64,000 bases of DNA from NCBI GenBank assembly GCA_965216875.1, contig OZ244207.1:2368001-2432000 (forward strand), read 5' to 3'. A model generated the notes under the pieces. It made no database searches. It worked only from the letters and a program-made list of their open reading frames with translations, and was not told where the DNA came from. This DNA comes from Rubripirellula sp. Lineage in GTDB: Bacteria; Planctomycetota; Planctomycetia; Pirellulales; Pirellulaceae. Of this stretch, positions 10,067 through 19,505 are shown one piece after another. Both the position numbers and the translations under genes were made by a program. Numbering within the stretch: position 1 is the first letter of the stretch; each line of letters starts with the position of its first letter.

Positions 10067-11167
10067 TCACTCGTCCGATAGGAAGCGTGATGCCCGGCGA
10101 AGGCCAACAGCACGCGATGTCGACCACACGGTCGAAACGTCGCCGATGTGTTGAACGAGGCTCGGGATCGGATACCAAAACGAGATCCCACGACTCCATG
10201 CCCAAGCGCCGACACGCGTATCAATCCCCGCTTCTCCAGCGACAGTCTCAAGCTGACCGTCCCGGATCGAATCAAGCAATTCAACTGCGACGCGCCGCGG
10301 AAAGACCCAGGCCACTGCCCCGAGCGTCCACGGCTCTTCAATAAGATGCCACCCCGGCTCTCGGTCGCGTGAATAGTCCGATGATGTATAAAGCGAAACG
10401 ATACAGTTGTCGGATGCTGGCCAAAACGCCGCCTCCAAGTAGGCACGCATCTCCGGTGCGGGTGCGAAATATGCATCGTCTTGAACAAGCATTAATGCAT
10501 CGGCATCGCCTGCATCCTCGAACAACAGCTCGAATGCCCGGCACCACGCAGTCCACGCCCCCGATGGACCGTCAAGCTCGATCGCGTGAAGCGTCTGATG
10601 CTCGCTGCCCAGTTCAACAGGCCCGTCAAGAAACAGAGTGAATTCGTCGCTCGACCAACCACATTGAAGCAAGCTGTTCACCGAATCTGTAACGGTGGAA
10701 AGCCGTCGGTGACACGTTGTCATGCCAACTGCCCAGCGCACGGGTGAACCGCAACGTTTCGGGGGAATCGGAATCCGCTTGGCCAGTTCTTGTTGATCAA
10801 ACGAACCCTGCGAATCAGTTGCTCGATTGCCGGCACAATCATCTTCGCTTGGCAAAACGGTTGGAAGCTGAGACTGGGCGAACGCGAGAAGCTCTTCCTG
10901 ACGATCACGTCCAGCACCGCAACTAACCGGCATTTCGCTTTCGACGAATTGATAAAGTAGCGATGCCACAACCGGATTCAAATCGCGAGCGTTCGGGGCA
11001 AAGCTCTCACAACACGCTTCGCAAGCCCCTTCGGGGATGTCGCTCAATCGATTCGGATCGACCTTCGTGATCTCCGCCAACAACCCACAGCAACAACGCT
11101 CGCCATCGACCATTCGGTACGGGCAATCGCACGGACGGCGTCCGGTGAATCGATCTTCGGCAGTCAT
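10067..11167 (-). CDS. Putative GT-A fold glycosyltransferase with N-terminal Cys-rich domain
   Basis: WAVGMTT start strand, LMLVQDDA (DxD-like), PSLVQHIG C-terminal motif; N-terminal CPYR..CG..ACEAC..NPV. Confidence 0.6.
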   Translation of the reverse strand: MTAEDRFTGRRPCDCPYRMVDGERCCCGLLAEITKVDPNRLSDIPEGACEACCESFAPNARDLNPVVASLLYQFVESEMPVSCGAGRDRQEELLAFAQSQLPTVLPSEDDCAGNRATDSQGSFDQQELAKRIPIPPKRCGSPVRWAVGMTTCHRRLSTVTDSVNSLLQCGWSSDEFTLFLDGPVELGSEHQTLHAIELDGPSGAWTAWCRAFELLFEDAGDADALMLVQDDAYFAPAPEMRAYLEAAFWPASDNCIVSLYTSSDYSRDREPGWHLIEEPWTLGAVAWVFPRRVAVELLDSIRDGQLETVAGEAGIDTRVGAWAWSRGISFWYPIPSLVQHIGDVSTVWSTSRAVGLRRASRFLSDE

Positions 11168-12891
11168 GGGTGCACGCGTTGGGTCACCTCGGCGTGAACA
11201 CCCAACGCACCGAATGGCCGCGGGTCAAACTGCCCGAGCGCGAAAAGTTGCAGTCGCCTTCCAAACTCTTCGTGCGATTCTTGATTGGGTCCGCTACCCA
11301 AACCTGTGCTGCTGTGCTGCGTCGCGGATTGCCTGTGACAGCGGTAACGCAACAACACCGACTTACTGACAGCGATGTGACTGCGCGCGTAGTAAGCCCG
11401 TGACTGCAATTCGGTATCGACCCCCGTTCGATTCCGTTTGCGCTCGCCAAAGTCGGCATACCCTCCCATTCCTTCGAACCAACTGCGTTTCATCACTAAC
11501 GTCGGATTCTCCAAAAAGTAGCCGGCCCCGCGGCGACATGGGTAACGCGACTCTCGCAGGTACCGCTTTGTTCCTTCGGCAGCGACCACGCGATGAGCGA
11601 CCGCAGGGAACAACTCCGGCAATCCAAACAACTCGGTGGCTCCGCCAGCGACGTCCGCACCCGAATGTTGAAGCAGTGCAACCAAACGCGCGAGACGATG
11701 AGGCAAACTCACGTCATCCGCGTCTTGAACGGCAAGGAACTCGGTCTCGGCAGATCGAGAAACGTTGTTGAACGTCAGGAATGGCCCGATGTTGAGAGAG
11801 TTGCGGTAGAACCGAATGTTCGAATACTCACTCAGCCCCCTAAATAGCTCATCGGACGATTGGGTTGAGCAATCATCGACAAGGTGAATTACTACATCGA
11901 CCCCAGCTTGCTCCAACAAACTCGCCACAGAACTTTGTACGTATTCGAAATCATCCCTGAAGGGGACGATCACATCACAACTAGCTCTCTCGTTTGATTC
12001 GGGCCTAAAAAGCCGCGACAAATTGGTTCGACGACAGAAAGTTGCACGTCGATCTTGAACTCGATTGGCATCCTTGCCACTTCGTAACGGTCCATCTTCA
12101 TCGATGCGAACCAATCGATGCTGCGCCGTCGCCACCGCGGCGAAATCGTCGAGCCCCTCGATCGTTTCCTGATCGTCAAGTATCATGTCAACGAGTGTTG
12201 CCCGCCTAACGACCACCGATTCGATCGACACCGATTCGCAATTCGAATCTCGATGGGCAAGCATTTCACCGCCGCGTTCATCAAGCGCGCCGATCACTTG
12301 CCGCAACGTTTGATCATCGTAAACCGCTGTTGCATCCAAGAGGGCAACGAATGGTGTCGTCAACTGGTCCAGTATCGACTCACTTCGCGCCGCGGTCGTT
12401 CCTTCTTTAGCAACACAGTGCACTCGAACGTTTGGCGTGTCGGCGTAGCGATCGGCGATGCTCGATGAAACTTCGTCGACCAGCAAATGCACCACAACAT
12501 AGACGCGATGCTGATTCAAGACCGAATCAAGCATTTGATCGATTGGTTTGACACAGCCGTGCAAATCGAGAACCACGTCGCAACTGTAGGACGCGGGCGC
12601 AAAGTGCATCGACGACTCTGCTCGAATCGATTTCTGCGACCAGGCATTGAGTAGGCTGGCCGCCTCGTCTTCGCCTTCACAATTCTCCGTCGCCCGATAG
12701 ATCAAGGACGAGATCACGGGATTTGCATCCGGCGAAGCAAAGGGCGAATGCGTCGCACAGACTTCACACGCAGTGAGGTCGACCTGACAATCGCGGTCGT
12801 CGGCTCCAGTCAATCGCTGTACGAATCCGCAAACCGCTGCGCCGTCAGGTCCGGAAACGATGCGAAAGGGGCACTCAGTCGGATCAGCCAC
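11164..12891 (-). CDS. Family 2 glycosyltransferase with N-terminal Cys-rich domain and a duplicated degenerate GT2 domain
   Basis: DVIVPF, HLVDDCST, NIGP, FLAVQDADDVSLPHRL, GGY; GTG start abuts the upstream TAG. Confidence 0.8.
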   Translation of the reverse strand: MADPTECPFRIVSGPDGAAVCGFVQRLTGADDRDCQVDLTACEVCATHSPFASPDANPVISSLIYRATENCEGEDEAASLLNAWSQKSIRAESSMHFAPASYSCDVVLDLHGCVKPIDQMLDSVLNQHRVYVVVHLLVDEVSSSIADRYADTPNVRVHCVAKEGTTAARSESILDQLTTPFVALLDATAVYDDQTLRQVIGALDERGGEMLAHRDSNCESVSIESVVVRRATLVDMILDDQETIEGLDDFAAVATAQHRLVRIDEDGPLRSGKDANRVQDRRATFCRRTNLSRLFRPESNERASCDVIVPFRDDFEYVQSSVASLLEQAGVDVVIHLVDDCSTQSSDELFRGLSEYSNIRFYRNSLNIGPFLTFNNVSRSAETEFLAVQDADDVSLPHRLARLVALLQHSGADVAGGATELFGLPELFPAVAHRVVAAEGTKRYLRESRYPCRRGAGYFLENPTLVMKRSWFEGMGGYADFGERKRNRTGVDTELQSRAYYARSHIAVSKSVLLRYRCHRQSATQHSSTGLGSGPNQESHEEFGRRLQLFALGQFDPRPFGALGVHAEVTQRVHP

Positions 12892-13152
12892 CTAGACCGA
12901 CGTGGCTGGCGCCAAACAAGGTGTCGTGCGCAACTGGCCTTTGAATCGCCCAGCAAGCAGAGGTGGTTCGCCGACGACGCCGCCGTCGACCGGTTGGTTC
13001 AACTTGACGTTCCACTGGGCTCCATCAAATTCCCAGAGCGTCGTTCCGTAAGCTGACGCTTGCCCGCCGCTCGAATGCGAGTGCAATTTAACGTCTGATT
13101 CTGTGTCCCACATTGACTGATCCCTCTGTCTTACCATGAACGCCATCCGCAA
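12892..13152 (-). CDS. Small hypothetical protein, first gene of the GT operon
   Basis: 86-aa ORF (start may be at M3, M6 or M14); stop directly abuts the next start; protein-like YGTTLWEFDGAQW...PP..GRFKGQLR. Confidence 0.6.
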   Translation of the reverse strand: MRMAFMVRQRDQSMWDTESDVKLHSHSSGGQASAYGTTLWEFDGAQWNVKLNQPVDGGVVGEPPLLAGRFKGQLRTTPCLAPATSV

Positions 13153-13292: not shown

Positions 13293-16200
13293 TTACTCCT
13301 GTACAGATGTCGGCGCCCTGACAACTCGAAAGCCGAACGAAAAAGCGCGCTTGCGCGTTGTCTCGGTTCCATCGGTAAGGAAATCAGGATCTGTATACGC
13401 GGTGTTGGCATACCCTCGGAACTGGCGCACATCACTGTTTTTGTTGACGCCGATGCCTGAGCACCACTCGCTTAAGTTGCCAACCATATCAAAGATGCCC
13501 AAGCGATTTGGCATAAACGTTTTAACCTTGTGAGGATTGTCTAAATCGTTCCCAACGAGCCATTTGTAATTACGTTGAAGGCTTGGATCGTGTCCGAAGG
13601 GGAAGGGAGTCGTCACCCCTGCAAAACATGCCGCCTCCCATTCTTCGGCCGTCGGTAAACGATACCCCTTTCGCGACAGGTAATCGGAACGAAGAAGGAT
13701 TTCGTCGTTCTCAAGTCCCTCGAGTGCTGGATAGCACATCTCCGCCTCACCCATCCCTTCCTGACGTGTGAGCCAACGCGTGTAGGAAACCGCATCAATC
13801 CAGTTCACCAATTGCATTGGATGCTCATTCGTGGGCGCCTGGTCGCGATGCACGTTCGGCTCTCGGCCAGGACGATGCTCAAGATACTGGCCCACCGTGA
13901 CTTCATTGATTGCGATTTCAAAATCGACCGTCTCATTGGAAACCCGCACCATCGTCTGGCCGCGAGGCGTCACTGTCCACTGATTCGACGGATCAGTTCG
14001 ACCGGCCAGTCCCAACGTTGCCTCATCGACCCACTGATCCATCCCAAGCTTTCGAAGCAGGTATTCCGATGCGCCATGAACGGCACAGTCGGGATGTTCA
14101 ACAAAGTGTCGCTGTGCTACGGCGGCAACGTTGTCTAGTTCATCCCCAGTACCGACAACGTTTTCAAATTGTGCGATCAACAGCATCAAACCGTAAATCT
14201 CGCCAGGGTCACTGGCGATTTGTAAACGCTGTACCAAAACGTTGGTCTCTAGCTCCAACTTGGGTGTTCGGTCCAGCAACCAGGCGCGTGTGTCGGGCAC
14301 ATCTTTATGCTGCAAACCCAACCACAACTCATCAAACTCGCCTCGGCTCGCCAACACGGCGATTGCGTTTGCCTTGCGGCTACTTTTTTCTGAAAGCTCT
14401 GTTTCATCCGCATCAGGTCCGATGTCTGGGAACGCAGCTTCCCTGAGTACCGGCGTGATTTCGTCCTCCATCGTTCCCAGCATCGCCAGAATCTCGCCAA
14501 CCCGCTCGCCGCGAACATCGAGCATCGTCAATGCGATCATGGCGGGTTCATCCGAATAGATGTCGCTCACCACGGCAACGGTCGCATCGCGCTGCTGGGG
14601 TGTAGCGTTCGTGCGAAATTCGGCTGCAAACGAATCGACAAGTGCCAACCGGATGGGCATCAGTCCATCGATGATCGCGTCGTAATTACCCGGTTTCGAA
14701 GAGACCTTTGCCAATGCCGTTTGAACGAGGAACGGTGCCAAGGCGTTCCAGCGCGATTCGGGACTCACATCGAGTTCTTCGCTGATCCTCGCGAGCACCA
14801 ATCCGCTACGCAATCGCAGATCATCATCTTCATCGTCGTCTTCCAGTGTTTTCAACAGACGCAAACGAAGCTGCTCGGTATCCCCTTTTCGCAGCTCTGC
14901 GGCGATCACCAACATCAAGTCGTAATCGACGGTGAACAATCGCTCGGTCAACTCATCAAAAACGCTTTGGTCCGTCGGGTCGATCGCAAGCAATGCCGTG
15001 TGCGCACGCAAGTGCTGCGGAGTCTCGACATCGTACTTTGTCAAACGGTGCCTGAGTTCCGACTGCATCCACGATCGATCGGCCTCGGCCTGCTTCAAGA
15101 GCCGCGGCAACTCGGAAGTATCCGCTGTCACCAGTTGGTCGGCCAAAGCGGTTGCCTTGATTTCGCGCGAATAGCGAAACGCACCGACGCCCAGTAGCAA
15201 CATGAATGCTACTGCCGCCACAGTGCCCAACAGATACCTTTTGTTGGCCGCGGAGAGCATCTCTTGGGCGGCTTGTCCACGCTGAGCCGGCATGGTCAAC
15301 AACGAAAAGTAGACCCACTCGATCCATGACGGCATGTGCCGCCGATCCGAACGTGAAAGGTAGACTTCCGTTCGATCGGCCAGTCGCAAGGCAGCACGCC
15401 CTCGCATCGTCAATTGTTGATGCGTTTCGATCCACTGGCGCACAGCTGGCACCAAAAAATCGTGGGTCAGCTGATAGCAAGATTCGCCCACAACCTTTTC
15501 AACCTCCCCCGCGCGACTTCGTCCCGCTGGCGTGATCAACCGCAGATCGCGATCCAAGATTTCGATCATCTCATTGAACCGTTTTGGGTGCTGCCCATAC
15601 CCACACAAAAGACGCAGCTCCGATTCAGGTCGCATCGCTCCTTTGATGTTGGTGCCTGTCGCTGGAAGCAACGCCGCAAGCAGTTTGCGAGTCGCCTCGA
15701 GGTGCTTTCGATTGCCTACCGGAGCGTCAGGAGAAGAGAAAGACTCATCAAGAAATCGTGCACCTACACCTTCGATCCCTCCCAACGCACTCAGCGAATC
15801 CGCATCCCATTGGCGAGTCTTCATCATCTCGGCAAAGGTGGCAAGGCGGACCGGCATCACGGTCGAATTCTCGCTCAAGCCTTCGATCGCACGTTCCACA
15901 AAGATCTCTTGTTGGTAGCTCCAGTCGCTCGATCGGTCAGGAAGTTTTCCAAAGGCTCGCCCAAATTCACCGAGCACTTTCTGGGCATGGGGGCCGTCGA
16001 AACGATCGATCAATGCCAGGTTTCGATTTCCAACAAGATCGACCTCAAGTTCGTCCATCAGCTGGCTAATCGAAAGCCAAAACTCGTCACGCACAAGAAA
16101 CAAAGACTGGAGATTCAAGCCATCGCACTGCCGAAATGCGATCGCGAGCTCGTCTACTCCGGAAGCCGCGCGGGCGTGCAGCCATTGCTCGAATTGATCA

Positions 16201-17918
16201 ACAACGATCAAGGTTTTGCGGCCAAGTTCACTCTTGGCGTATCGGCGCAACCACGACATGCTGTCGATGAGATCGAGATCGCTTGGCAAACCAGGACACT
16301 CTGACTTGAGCGCCGCGTGCAAGTCTTTGGCAAGCCCGTCCCCAGAGGCTTCGACAAACACAACCGTCACCGACTCGTCGATCAACGGCACCAGCCCCGC
16401 TTTGACGAACGAAGACTTCCCGCATCCTGAAGGCCCATAAATCACACCCGCACGAAATGCCAATTCAGGATCGTCGGACAGGATTCGCCGCTGCCAAAAC
16501 CGCAAACTCTCTGGCACGCCCAGGCGATCCAACGGCCCCGGCAGCAACTGCTGGAAGAAACTAGCGTCCTCGGTATCAAACGACCTTAGTCCCCGAGGCA
16601 CGATCTTCTCTGGACGTGACGAGCTCGGATCGGCTCCAGAAGCAACCGCCTGCATACCGAACGATGAGTTTCCGATCGACTCTTCAAGCACGCTCGCCAG
16701 TTCGGCAGCGAACGCAGCCGCACTCGGATAGCGATCAGCAGCACGCTTGCTGAGCGCGCGGCTACAAATCCTGTCGAGCTCTTTGGGCAAAACGGGATTG
16801 TGATGCTGGAGCGGCAAGGGATCCAGTGTCAAAACCTCGTCGATCACTTGGTGGTGTGTTTTTCCGGGGAAGGGACGTCCGCCCCCAAGAACCTCATACA
16901 TCACAACGCCAAGACTGAACACGTCACTGCGTCCGTCCACCAAGTGACCTTCGCCACGCGCTTGTTCGGGACTCATATAGCCGGGAGTGCCAAGCCACCC
17001 ACGCCGTCGTTCGTGAGCGTCCTCGGTCAATGCGAGCCCAAAATCGCTCACGAAACACTCGCCGCGCTCGTCGAGCAACAAATTGGCCGGTTTGATGTCG
17101 CGATGCACAACTCCCTGGTCGTGCACGGATTGAAGAGTCTCGGCAACGGACTGGACCAAAACAAGCGCGTCACGAATCGGCATCGGAGCACGACGAATCC
17201 GTTGACTCAACGATTCGCCCTTGATGTACTTCATCACCACGAAACAGCGATCGTCGATTCGGCCGACATCGTAGATGGGAACCACGTGCGAATGATCCAA
17301 ATTGGCAAGCATTCGCGCTTCGGAAAGGTACAACTCAATCGCGGCGGGCGTCATCTCGCGATCGGGATGCGGGAGTTTGACCGCCACTTGCCGGTTCAAC
17401 TCCGGGTCCTGCGCGAGATAGACGTTTCCGAATCCGCCCGATCCCAACACGCTTTCCAGTTGATACCTGCCCACCGTCAACCCAAGGTCGCTGGAAGCGT
17501 CCTTTGCTTGGCTGTTTGTGCCAACCGAGATCTCATGTTCAGCCGTTCGCGCACCCGCTACGTTGGTCGCGCTGTGATTCGATTCGCTGGCAATCGTTGC
17601 GTGCCCATCGAGCACTTCTTTGATCACGTTGGTGAACTGAGGAAACTCGCTGAAATAGTCACCCACGCTTCGCGAAGAGCCGCGTTGTTGTCGCATGGAC
17701 ATGTCGAACAGAAGCAACTCGCGAAAAACCTCGGCTCGCTGCTTGACCGGAATCTCGTCTTGCACGAGCTGGTCTACGAAGCTGCGGAGGCTGAAATCTC
17801 CCTCTTCATGCCAGCTGCTCTCAAACTGAGCGCGATAATTTGAGTGGTCGGCCGAATCTTGATCGACCGTTTCATCGCTTGTCATTTCAAAACTAGCTTC
17901 AACCGACTCATGCCCCAA
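13293..17918 (-). CDS. Ser/Thr protein kinase - STAND-type P-loop NTPase - TM - helical repeat - FGE-sulfatase (SUMF1-like) domain protein
   Basis: LGSGGFG, VAVK, HRDIKPAN, DFG, GTPGYMSPE; Walker A GPSGCGKSS, Walker B IVVDQFE; RLPTAEEWE, PNRLGIFDMVGNLSEW, GFRVVR. Confidence 0.9.
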   Translation of the reverse strand: MGHESVEASFEMTSDETVDQDSADHSNYRAQFESSWHEEGDFSLRSFVDQLVQDEIPVKQRAEVFRELLLFDMSMRQQRGSSRSVGDYFSEFPQFTNVIKEVLDGHATIASESNHSATNVAGARTAEHEISVGTNSQAKDASSDLGLTVGRYQLESVLGSGGFGNVYLAQDPELNRQVAVKLPHPDREMTPAAIELYLSEARMLANLDHSHVVPIYDVGRIDDRCFVVMKYIKGESLSQRIRRAPMPIRDALVLVQSVAETLQSVHDQGVVHRDIKPANLLLDERGECFVSDFGLALTEDAHERRRGWLGTPGYMSPEQARGEGHLVDGRSDVFSLGVVMYEVLGGGRPFPGKTHHQVIDEVLTLDPLPLQHHNPVLPKELDRICSRALSKRAADRYPSAAAFAAELASVLEESIGNSSFGMQAVASGADPSSSRPEKIVPRGLRSFDTEDASFFQQLLPGPLDRLGVPESLRFWQRRILSDDPELAFRAGVIYGPSGCGKSSFVKAGLVPLIDESVTVVFVEASGDGLAKDLHAALKSECPGLPSDLDLIDSMSWLRRYAKSELGRKTLIVVDQFEQWLHARAASGVDELAIAFRQCDGLNLQSLFLVRDEFWLSISQLMDELEVDLVGNRNLALIDRFDGPHAQKVLGEFGRAFGKLPDRSSDWSYQQEIFVERAIEGLSENSTVMPVRLATFAEMMKTRQWDADSLSALGGIEGVGARFLDESFSSPDAPVGNRKHLEATRKLLAALLPATGTNIKGAMRPESELRLLCGYGQHPKRFNEMIEILDRDLRLITPAGRSRAGEVEKVVGESCYQLTHDFLVPAVRQWIETHQQLTMRGRAALRLADRTEVYLSRSDRRHMPSWIEWVYFSLLTMPAQRGQAAQEMLSAANKRYLLGTVAAVAFMLLLGVGAFRYSREIKATALADQLVTADTSELPRLLKQAEADRSWMQSELRHRLTKYDVETPQHLRAHTALLAIDPTDQSVFDELTERLFTVDYDLMLVIAAELRKGDTEQLRLRLLKTLEDDDEDDDLRLRSGLVLARISEELDVSPESRWNALAPFLVQTALAKVSSKPGNYDAIIDGLMPIRLALVDSFAAEFRTNATPQQRDATVAVVSDIYSDEPAMIALTMLDVRGERVGEILAMLGTMEDEITPVLREAAFPDIGPDADETELSEKSSRKANAIAVLASRGEFDELWLGLQHKDVPDTRAWLLDRTPKLELETNVLVQRLQIASDPGEIYGLMLLIAQFENVVGTGDELDNVAAVAQRHFVEHPDCAVHGASEYLLRKLGMDQWVDEATLGLAGRTDPSNQWTVTPRGQTMVRVSNETVDFEIAINEVTVGQYLEHRPGREPNVHRDQAPTNEHPMQLVNWIDAVSYTRWLTRQEGMGEAEMCYPALEGLENDEILLRSDYLSRKGYRLPTAEEWEAACFAGVTTPFPFGHDPSLQRNYKWLVGNDLDNPHKVKTFMPNRLGIFDMVGNLSEWCSGIGVNKNSDVRQFRGYANTAYTDPDFLTDGTETTRKRAFSFGFRVVRAPTSVQE

Positions 17919-18026: not shown

Positions 18027-19505
18027 CTAGAGTCGCTGCAGCGCAACCCCACCCGTTTTGCGGGCAAGCTGAATCAGGTCGTCATTCTCGGCTTCAACGA
18101 TAAAGACGTGCAGCATGATTCCCTTGAGCTCTTTCGGCTGGACATTTATCCCGTGATCTCCGTCGGTAACAATGATGAGCTCCGGCCGTAGAGCATCCAT
18201 GTCGCTAACCGCTTTGCGAATCCTCTTAATCCCTTCGCGCAACGCGAGGTTGATGTCCGTGTCATCCCCCATGAAAAAGTCGTAGTGCAAACGCTGGATC
18301 TCTTCGCGTGCTTCGGACACTTCCGTGACCATGACTTCATCGTGAACGACCGAATCAAAAAAGCTGTAGCCCAAAACCGCCTCACGACGTCCGACCGCTC
18401 GCAGTCGGTTCAGCAAAATTGCCAGCAATTTGTAGATCCGTTCGCCCGCTTGCATCGATTTACTGCGATCAAGCAGCGCGTAGAAAAACTGCTTCTTGTC
18501 ACTCCGCTTGATCTTTTCTCGAACCATGAAGCTCTTCGTTGCGACACGGTACCGAAAGTACTTTGGTGAGGCCACTTTCATCGCCCAAGCCGCCGGGGCA
18601 AGCTTCGACAACTCATCAAAGGACTGCATCATCCTCATCCGAGTTTGATCGCCGTCCGCTGCCGGAATCATCTTTTTCTCAAAACGTGGCTGAAACGCGA
18701 CATATTCGTTCGCGATTCGAGCAATCCGAAGCAAAGCCTCCATGCTCGGTTCTTCGAGCAATCGCGAGGCAACGTTCAATCGCCGAACCGAAAGCGGGTG
18801 CATTTCCTTCTTCTCGGTTTGCTCGCGCATCCCGCCAAAGCAATCACTAAAAAGCGACGCGATTCGACCGCGTGTTTCGATCGTTTCGACAAGTTGTATC
18901 GAGGTGATGCCGCGATCAACACTCATCTGTTCGTGGTCAATCTTGTCGGTTGGCTTGAGCTGGTCTTCATTGGGAAGACATTCGAGCAATTCGATTTCAT
19001 CCGCTTCAAGCCCACCTACCTCCTGGAGCGCCCAATTGATCTGTTCAGCAATCTTCTCGGGTGGAATCCCGACTGCGATGGCGCGTTTTGCCGTTGCGAT
19101 GATCGCAACGTTGGCGATGGCTCGATCGATGTCGGTTCGACCGTGAATGTTCTGAAACTCGACATCGCGCAAGCTGAGAACTAAACGATGATAGATTTCG
19201 GCGTCCTTGACCGACCAGTTCACGAATTCATCAAGCCACTGAAGCGGCTTCCACATTCGCATCCTGTAAGTGAGCCGCGTGCGCCGTTCGATTTCCGCCT
19301 TACTGGCGAAGGTGCCTTCGTCAACCAGATGCACACCGTCCCAAATGATGGGCAACGGAAGATGATGCATCCCAATGGCATCGAGTTTCTTCACCACTTC
19401 GTTTGTGTTGATCTGCTGCCGCCGTTCACTCATGTCTGGCAAAGTGACATGAGTGTGGTGCTTGATGAAATTCAGAAATCTGCGATCAACTCGAATGCGT
19501 TCCAT
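18027..19505 (-). CDS. vWA (MIDAS) domain protein, ViaA/CoxE-like
   Basis: LLDRSKSM (DxSxS), GDDTDI, IIVTDG, LHVFIV in the C-terminal third. Confidence 0.75.
   Translation of the reverse strand: MERIRVDRRFLNFIKHHTHVTLPDMSERRQQINTNEVVKKLDAIGMHHLPLPIIWDGVHLVDEGTFASKAEIERRTRLTYRMRMWKPLQWLDEFVNWSVKDAEIYHRLVLSLRDVEFQNIHGRTDIDRAIANVAIIATAKRAIAVGIPPEKIAEQINWALQEVGGLEADEIELLECLPNEDQLKPTDKIDHEQMSVDRGITSIQLVETIETRGRIASLFSDCFGGMREQTEKKEMHPLSVRRLNVASRLLEEPSMEALLRIARIANEYVAFQPRFEKKMIPAADGDQTRMRMMQSFDELSKLAPAAWAMKVASPKYFRYRVATKSFMVREKIKRSDKKQFFYALLDRSKSMQAGERIYKLLAILLNRLRAVGRREAVLGYSFFDSVVHDEVMVTEVSEAREEIQRLHYDFFMGDDTDINLALREGIKRIRKAVSDMDALRPELIIVTDGDHGINVQPKELKGIMLHVFIVEAENDDLIQLARKTGGVALQRL

Follow-up and report, generated by a model that had tools for sequence, protein, structure and literature searches.

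A four-gene cassette, real and apparently undescribed, was found in a 64,000-nt stretch of DNA from Rubripirellula sp. (GCA_965216875.1, contig OZ244207.1, positions 2,368,001-2,432,000 of the forward strand; this whole stretch is called the window). It encodes a receptor kinase, a small protein of 73 aa referred to here as the tag protein, and two glycosyltransferases (GTs), P0002 and P0003, that begin with the same four-cysteine (4-Cys) module (Table 1). The cassette is best read as a glycosylation line whose parts are of phage type; the small protein would be its docking hub and is the likely acceptor. In this four-part, tag-directed cytoplasmic scheme, to which a probability of about 0.55 is given, the module would read the tag, the enzymes would glycosylate the adjoining Ser/Thr tail, and the receptor kinase, taken to be lectin-type, would control the line. 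Literature searches returned no description of this cassette; the source-data supplements of PMC8195603 and PMC7159879 could list one.

Table 1. Features of the cassette (positions in the window)
Feature	Position	Strand	Description
Receptor kinase gene	13293..17918	-	Ser/Thr kinase, nSTAND1 NTPase, one transmembrane helix, helical region, FGS/FGE-sulfatase domain
Small tag protein gene, 73 aa	12892..13113	-	Ser/Gly-rich N-tail and core of ~47 aa; predicted ligand of the module
P0002, 575 aa	11164..12891	-	4-Cys module, degenerate GT2-like domain, intact GT2 domain
4-Cys module, P0002 copy	12607..12882	-	Cys pattern, alignment with P0003
P0003, 366 aa	10067..11167	-	4-Cys module, unnamed GT-A family domain (QDD, PSLVQHIG)
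4-Cys module of P0003 and next strand, residues 12-111	10835..11134	-	Predicted docking surface

A preliminary description of the locus had proposed a translationally coupled operon of three genes. The three open reading frames (ORFs) and their couplings were recovered, the TAG of the small gene (12894-12892) abutting the GTG of P0002 at 12891 and P0002 and P0003 overlapping by ATGA at 11167-11164; the unit, however, comprises four genes, with the kinase gene included. The small ORF had been drawn from TTG 13152. Its most likely start is ATG 13113, which yields 73 aa, has a ribosome-binding-site-like GAGGGA, agrees with a database entry of 73 aa and matches the positions at which homologues begin.

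The N-termini of the two enzymes are homologous (34% identity over 68 aa, pairwise E 2e-8). When all 123,652 six-frame ORFs were searched, each was the best non-self match of the other (E 1.8e-4 and 4.9e-5); no third module copy exists in this genome. The shared module proposed earlier was placed at about 60 aa, while its actual length is about 95-100 aa, with two more helices and a strand. AlphaFold2 (AF2) modelled the module alone (pLDDT 91.9) as a beta-hairpin followed by two short and two long helices. The Cys residues lie where they had been placed (C7, C21, C42 and C45 in P0002; C15, C27, C49 and C52 in P0003), and across the aligned copies their conservation is 126/127, 129/129, 129/129 and 129/129. 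An additional Cys, C53, occurs in 96 of 129 copies but not in P0002, and R18, N64 and S69 are near-invariant in the 129-copy alignment. Because of the spacing C-x11-13-C-x20-21-C-x2-C, the Cys residues are predicted to bind a structural Zn, and the four conserved Cys ligands expected of a Zn domain are present in the module copies. The module has no CxxCH and none of the 130 module proteins has a transmembrane (TM)-like segment, in line with the earlier rejection of a haem c site. No named family could be given to it either: in a scan of 112 copies no Pfam family matched more than one. A fold search with the module model gave a best Z of 5.0, no Foldseek match at E<=0.001 and no PqqD-like winged-helix fold among the matches listed, which shows neither a new fold nor an absence of relatives. 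ESM Atlas gave 0.76 for the module and no usable match for the small protein. A relationship to heavy-metal-binding (CxxC) proteins was considered and dropped, the PDB sequence matches (E>=0.17) being taken as chance.

A profile search with the module returned 359 clusters at 50% identity, the best 150 of which were examined. A Pfam match was obtained for 31 of the 64 longer module proteins scanned and none for the other 33. The fusion partners were GT2 (16), GT4 (7), CAP59-like (2) and Methyltransf_24 (2), with one fusion each to sulfotransferase, polysaccharide deacetylase, NPCBM and PRTase domains; a GT34-like fusion was seen among the loci. Since it is fused to such diverse GT, sulfotransferase, methyltransferase and deacetylase domains, the module marks enzymes that build and decorate glycans. 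Some module enzymes carry a second unnamed 4-Cys domain, C.xLG...C.HP.H..TT..C..C.DW, of which 33 distinct copies were collected. It lies between the module and the GT-A domain in L072, L076, L081, L083, L088, L093, L096, L099, L100 and L016, occurs also at L019:10372-10776, and weakly resembles a phage GT N-terminus (E 0.46). Homology of the module to this second domain was unsupported (hhalign P 1.4%).

Co-occurrence of the genes was observed directly, as was their conservation. Eighty loci (GTDB) were retrieved with the GT-A alignment of P0003, and 44 of them, having at least 6 kb on both sides, were treated as well covered. The module is present in 79 of the 80, at least two copies in 44 and the small gene in 61; 35 loci show a single module, some being cut by contig ends. 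Small genes end less than 300 nt before a module start in 61 of 63 cases, and a kinase-nSTAND1-FGS gene lies within 10 kb in 35 of the 44 well-covered loci. Nearly all 80 loci are labelled Planctomycetota, the others being two Verrucomicrobiales metagenome-assembled genomes (MAGs), one cyanobacterial MAG (a 2-kb contig) and one Phycisphaera title. In a phylum sample the module occurs in 6 of 401 genomes, all 6 with the small gene. In a family sample it occurs in 24 of 301 (three weak module matches, E 2-8e-4, being left out), and the small gene, whose co-occurrence the preliminary description had raised as a question, accompanies it in 23 of the 24. The genomes keep both parts even when these are unlinked, small gene and module enzymes lying at distant places in G637, G585, G678 and G272. 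The module has no consistent Pfam match, its Cys residues are conserved and synteny holds, the three points on which the preliminary description had staked its case. No other general neighbour recurred among 82 loci, and neither a peptidase nor an exporter gene was seen among the ORF clusters common to at least 4 of the 82 (representatives judged by eye, 5 scanned). CHAT-nSTAND1 and caspase neighbours occur in 5 and 4 of 81 loci, L023, L024, L025, L032, L033 and L089 being flanked in this way.

The tag protein consists of a Ser/Gly-rich N-tail and a core with an aromatic hairpin and the pattern GYxxWxxxGxxWxL...G...PP...GxFxGQ. It has no Pfam, NCBIfam, PHROG or PADLOC match; a single-sequence search found only the protein itself, and a second, longer profile search found three proteins of 137 aa. 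Ser makes up 16.7% of the 15 residues before the core, against 6.8% in the cassette enzyme and kinase ORFs, and at least three Ser/Thr precede the core in 55 of 74 small proteins, one of which (L134) has a poly-Ser tail. Orphan tag genes were noted at L132:8726-9022 and L133:8304-8681, with no module or GT match in the 18 kb around them and no module match in their genomes. At L134:2813-10350 a kinase-WD40-malectin gene, the poly-Ser tag protein and two GT-like genes lacking the module stand together, possibly a module-free variant.

Docking of the small protein on the module is indicated by a complex model. Full-length P0003, a Zn ligand and the small protein were submitted with alignments built in this analysis, the Zn being unscored, and the complex scored 0.75, compared with 0.15 for the best of three controls. 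Of 157 solved pairs 116 reach this mark, as do 2 of 215 mismatched ones, figures that are rough here since own alignments and a ligand were used. At least 49% of contacts are common to the runs, with a partner pLDDT of at least 75. Confident contacts join P0003 residues 45-51, 65-73, 98 and 101-111 to tag residues 19-26, 48-53 and 56-65; all fall within the module, and the GT-A domain has none, though the whole enzyme was offered. The model supports binding of the small protein to the module rather than to the catalytic domain, and with it the earlier suggestion of a module that brings the enzymes to the small protein. Neither partner was found to have a solved relative, so that a score owed to memorised structures is unlikely. 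The interface residue S69 is conserved in 76/78, 16/16, 7/8 and 15/15 members of the enzyme classes, position 101 is mostly L/I/V, and the P0002 module keeps the equivalents of S69 and L/I101.

The catalytic parts of the two enzymes are dissimilar, as originally stated. P0002 has two GT2-like domains behind its module and matches PF00535 with 80 bits (cut-off 23.3; best stretch residues 307-440). Its second domain, which carries DDxS and QDxDD, has both the above-cut-off match and the DxD motif of a GT2 enzyme; in the first no DxD is conserved. Neither Pfam nor NCBIfam matched P0003, which has 151 homologues and a match to the PHROG_854 glucosyltransferase (E 7e-9). Its AF2 model (pLDDT 91) has a GT-A fold with a DxD-type motif, and D230, D231 and H340 are invariant in the family. 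The closest structures to its catalytic domain are the GT13 enzymes POMGnT1 (Z 16.6, 205 residues aligned at rmsd 3.7) and, next, GnT I (Z 14.1), at 16-18% identity, and its QDD and C-terminal HxG resemble motifs of these enzymes. Unlike them it lacks a membrane anchor and a Pfam match, and no membership in the GT13 profile was found, the P0003 profile itself finding no PDB relative.

The kinase gene matches PF00069, PF20703 and PF03781 above cut-off. Its TM helix (~15180-15236) precedes the FGS region, and a TM-like segment is present in 33 of 43 cassette kinases; the kinase and nSTAND1 domains are thus predicted to be cytoplasmic and the FGS domain to lie on the far side of the membrane. The motifs are intact in most cassette kinases (HRD 41/43, DFG 43/43, Walker A 39/43, Walker B 42/43). 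This 8.3-Mb genome has three nSTAND1 kinases, so that chance adjacency to the cassette is estimated at about 1%, a figure for which kin are not independent. By BLAST the cassette kinases are not cleanly separable from the other two of this genome. These paralogues (G000:C1:5659627-5664927 and 3047811-3052409) differ in their C-terminal regions and have neither a module nor a tag gene in their vicinity. PADLOC 2.0 matched the generic kinase domain only, with no match for P0123, P0002 or P0003. No template repeat like that of a diversity-generating retroelement (DGR) was found when the 3' 708 nt of the kinase gene were compared with the own genome by blastn, the matches being short and the best in a paralogous kinase gene; reverse transcriptase was not sought. 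Directly upstream of the kinase, at 18027-19505 (-), lies a gene whose 492-aa product weakly matches vWA at its C-terminus (E 4e-4); this gene is not a recurring neighbour.

A phage-type character of the tag and the GT-A family is suggested by tail loci. The small-protein profile weakly matched a Ser/Thr-rich protein of 526 aa in which cores are repeated (E 4e-5), and the P0003 GT-A family is present in 30 viral contigs. The viral relatives typically stand behind a tape-measure gene (10 of the 13 loci whose large upstream ORF was scanned) and also behind a Cys-rich gene; in that region tag-like repeats lie between Thr/Ser tracts in 2 of the 30 loci. A hidden Markov model (HMM) of 8 phage repeats, run against 154,690 ORFs, gave 27 non-seed matches at E<10, of which 22 were tag proteins; all 17 at E<0.25 were tag proteins, and only 2 matches fell below E 0.001. 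Compared directly by hhalign, the tag and phage-repeat profiles aligned over 31 columns (P 88.8%, E 2.5e-6). With an alignment of 16 repeat rows, 13 from fibres and 3 from stand-alone variants, matches were obtained in 29 of 401 class genomes. Large proteins account for 11 and short ORFs for 18, and among the short ones 13 stand beside module or FGS genes. A GT2-type gene stands beside 12 of the 14 large-protein loci fetched, where tag-like repeats flank Ser/Thr tracts, and several show a prophage tail gene order (by eye and by BLAST to viral loci). Fibre repeats have 5-11 Cys each and stand in tail loci between Ser/Thr tracts, whereas the small gene of the window is a single chromosomal copy behind a kinase. 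At most one Cys is present in 51 of 78 stand-alone cores, as one would expect of a copy that stays in the cytoplasm. The small domain probably represents a lone, Cys-depleted copy of a repeat that lies between Ser/Thr tracts in tail-fibre-position proteins of planctomycete phages and prophages. In the GT-A tree (78 of 130 rows, 52 module rows being left out at random) cellular and phage clades separate; the tree comes from an unrooted quick search and gives no direction. Among GenBank phages no isolated phage matched, and scanning metagenomes with the fibre-like protein of L131 yielded a single weak locus.

The viral contigs L144-L173 show a recurring block of tape measure, hub-like gene, Cys-rich tail-end gene and P0003-family GT-A, continued by more GTs, sugar-nucleotide enzymes and methyltransferases; it is likely an undescribed tail-glycosylation locus of uncultivated phages. 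GT clusters adjoin RHS-repeat genes at L131:2-13454, L208, L019 and L015 (RHS identified from Pfam matches for L131 and L019, from phmmer for L208 and by eye only for L015), with mucin-like repeat proteins in L131 and L208. At L216:7258-9450 a prophage tail-end protein has a tag-like repeat fused to a C-terminal glycosyltransferase-like domain (by eye).

A mechanism may be outlined as follows. In the model the NPVVASL helix of the module, together with the strand that follows its last helix, grips the small protein at its C-terminal PP..GxFxGQxR segment. The enzymes would dock in turn on this one site, as the enzymes of ribosomally synthesised and post-translationally modified peptides (RiPPs) do on a leader, and each docked enzyme would add or decorate a sugar, most likely on the Ser/Thr-rich tail beside the tag core. 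For roughly one system in three a membrane anchor of the tag is predicted, which would leave the core facing the cytoplasm. The kinase-STAND protein might sense an outside ligand, probably a glycan, by its FGS domain and switch the line by phosphorylation; catalysis, acceptor and regulation are all inferred here, the last of them the most tentatively.

Several observations weigh against this reading. No Ser/Thr position of the small protein is conserved, 3 of 74 tails have no Ser/Thr, and Ser enrichment is also general to disordered tails. The complex setup, with own alignments and a Zn ligand, lies outside the calibration of the tool, and P0003 is the only enzyme modelled. The small protein of the window is unmatched by both phage-repeat models, so that the link between tag and phage repeat holds at the family level; the module was not detected in any of the 30 phage loci. 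The kinase is absent from 9 of the 44 well-covered loci. Four family genomes have the small gene and no module match, and G571 shows the reverse; among the four, G718 has a kinase-WD40-malectin gene, a poly-Ser small protein and two GT-like genes (by eye; no Pfam match). The genomes counted are related to one another, and the loci behind the alignments possibly overlap the genomes searched.

The same phage resemblance could be put to another use. The small protein, as a host copy of the tail-fibre repeat, may plug the modules or serve as a decoy. Glycosylated tails would then be sensed by the FGS receptor, and the released Zn-module GTs, until then held in check by the mimic, would dock on the repeats of the phage itself and mis-glycosylate or re-glycosylate its nascent fibres, or the cell would be arrested; alternatively the mimic would bait phage transferases. 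The first ranking of small proteins by the phage-repeat HMM, the hhalign result and the tape-measure position of the GT-A family in phages fit such an immune mimic, as do the patchy spread in the phylum and family samples, the variable enzymes, the weak sub-cut-off GT4-conflict matches in 3 of 42 and the CHAT-nSTAND1 and caspase neighbours. STAND-FGS proteins and GT4 domains have also been proposed as counter-invader parts (PMC8195603). PADLOC, however, saw only a generic kinase domain, the FGS end has no DGR-like template repeat in this genome, most loci are without conserved defence neighbours and tag repeats accompany only 2 of the 30 phage GT-A loci; counter-phage mimicry is considered unlikely.

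If instead the small protein were a mere adaptor, membrane tether or phospho-switch, the product would be a glycolipid, a lipid-linked or surface polysaccharide, or the glycan of some other protein. An N-terminal TM-like anchor followed by K/R in 20 of 65 small proteins, the want of a conserved acceptor residue and the presence of domain types usual in polysaccharide tailoring (deacetylase, sulfotransferase, CAP59-like) all agree with this, and small genes lie directly behind the kinase in 36 of 63 cases, with no GT seen adjacent to the small gene in G684. Yet the cassette has no flippase, polymerase, ligase or exporter as a recurring neighbour, and homologous repeats do occur between Ser/Thr tracts next to GTs; an adaptor role of this kind is held to be quite doubtful. 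It is very improbable that the module serves homotypic assembly or is a purely structural Zn domain, with a small protein that acts otherwise and a false modelled interface. The loci with two or more module genes, and the homotypic adaptor logic of effector-associated domain (EAD) systems (PMC8195603), would allow it; but many loci show one module only (some cut by contig ends), module and kinase, STAND or FGS were never in one ORF in 82 loci, and the small-protein complex passed the model mark. Modules of one locus are moreover no more alike than across loci (0.257 and 0.253), which means no within-locus homogenisation.

Three unnamed families (module, tag and GT-A) are defined together with one modelled, testable interaction. 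A portable module-tag pair that directs unrelated sugar enzymes to a single target would, if true, amount to a leader-like addressing code for protein glycosylation usable in glyco-engineering. An orphan planctomycete receptor kinase gains a candidate output, and a chromosomal signalling cassette is linked to phage tail glycosylation; whether bacteria sense or sabotage sugar-coated tails becomes a testable question.

One functional analogue is the RiPP recognition element (RRE), which on different RiPP tailoring enzymes binds one short leader by strand pairing and a helix. By analogy, the cassette would have a shared N-terminal domain of different enzymes that binds one short partner in that way. 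It differs in that the 4-Cys module has no PqqD or winged-helix match among those listed, the partner is a conserved folded core and no peptidase or transporter gene recurs. Serine-rich repeat proteins are O-glycosylated on Ser/Thr tracts by several cytoplasmic enzymes (GtfA/GtfB, accessory Sec). In contrast, the cassette has no large adhesin and no accessory Sec, its GTs are unrelated and its partner is a kinase. Counter-invader systems of STAND NTPase-FGS and GT4 type with EADs are described by Kaur et al. 2021 (PMC8195603), and GT effectors in other ternary systems are mentioned in PMC7159879. The kinase-nSTAND1-FGS architecture, a small N-terminal domain carried by several enzymes of one operon, GTs as variable parts and a patchy spread are common to the cassette and the systems of Kaur et al. 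There, however, a copy of the adaptor stands on the NTPase N-terminus, which never occurs here (0/82 loci); here a TM helix precedes the FGS domain and the predicted partner is a separate small protein. DGR association is frequent there, though not obligatory, while no DGR template was found in the present genome. Virion glycosylation is known in mycobacteriophages Che8, Corndog and Myrna (PMC12363180). Unlike the phage loci, the cassette is chromosomal and includes a receptor kinase and a module that phage enzymes lack; as in phage virion glycosylation, relatives of P0003 are found among phage tail genes, beside GTs and sugar-nucleotide enzymes.

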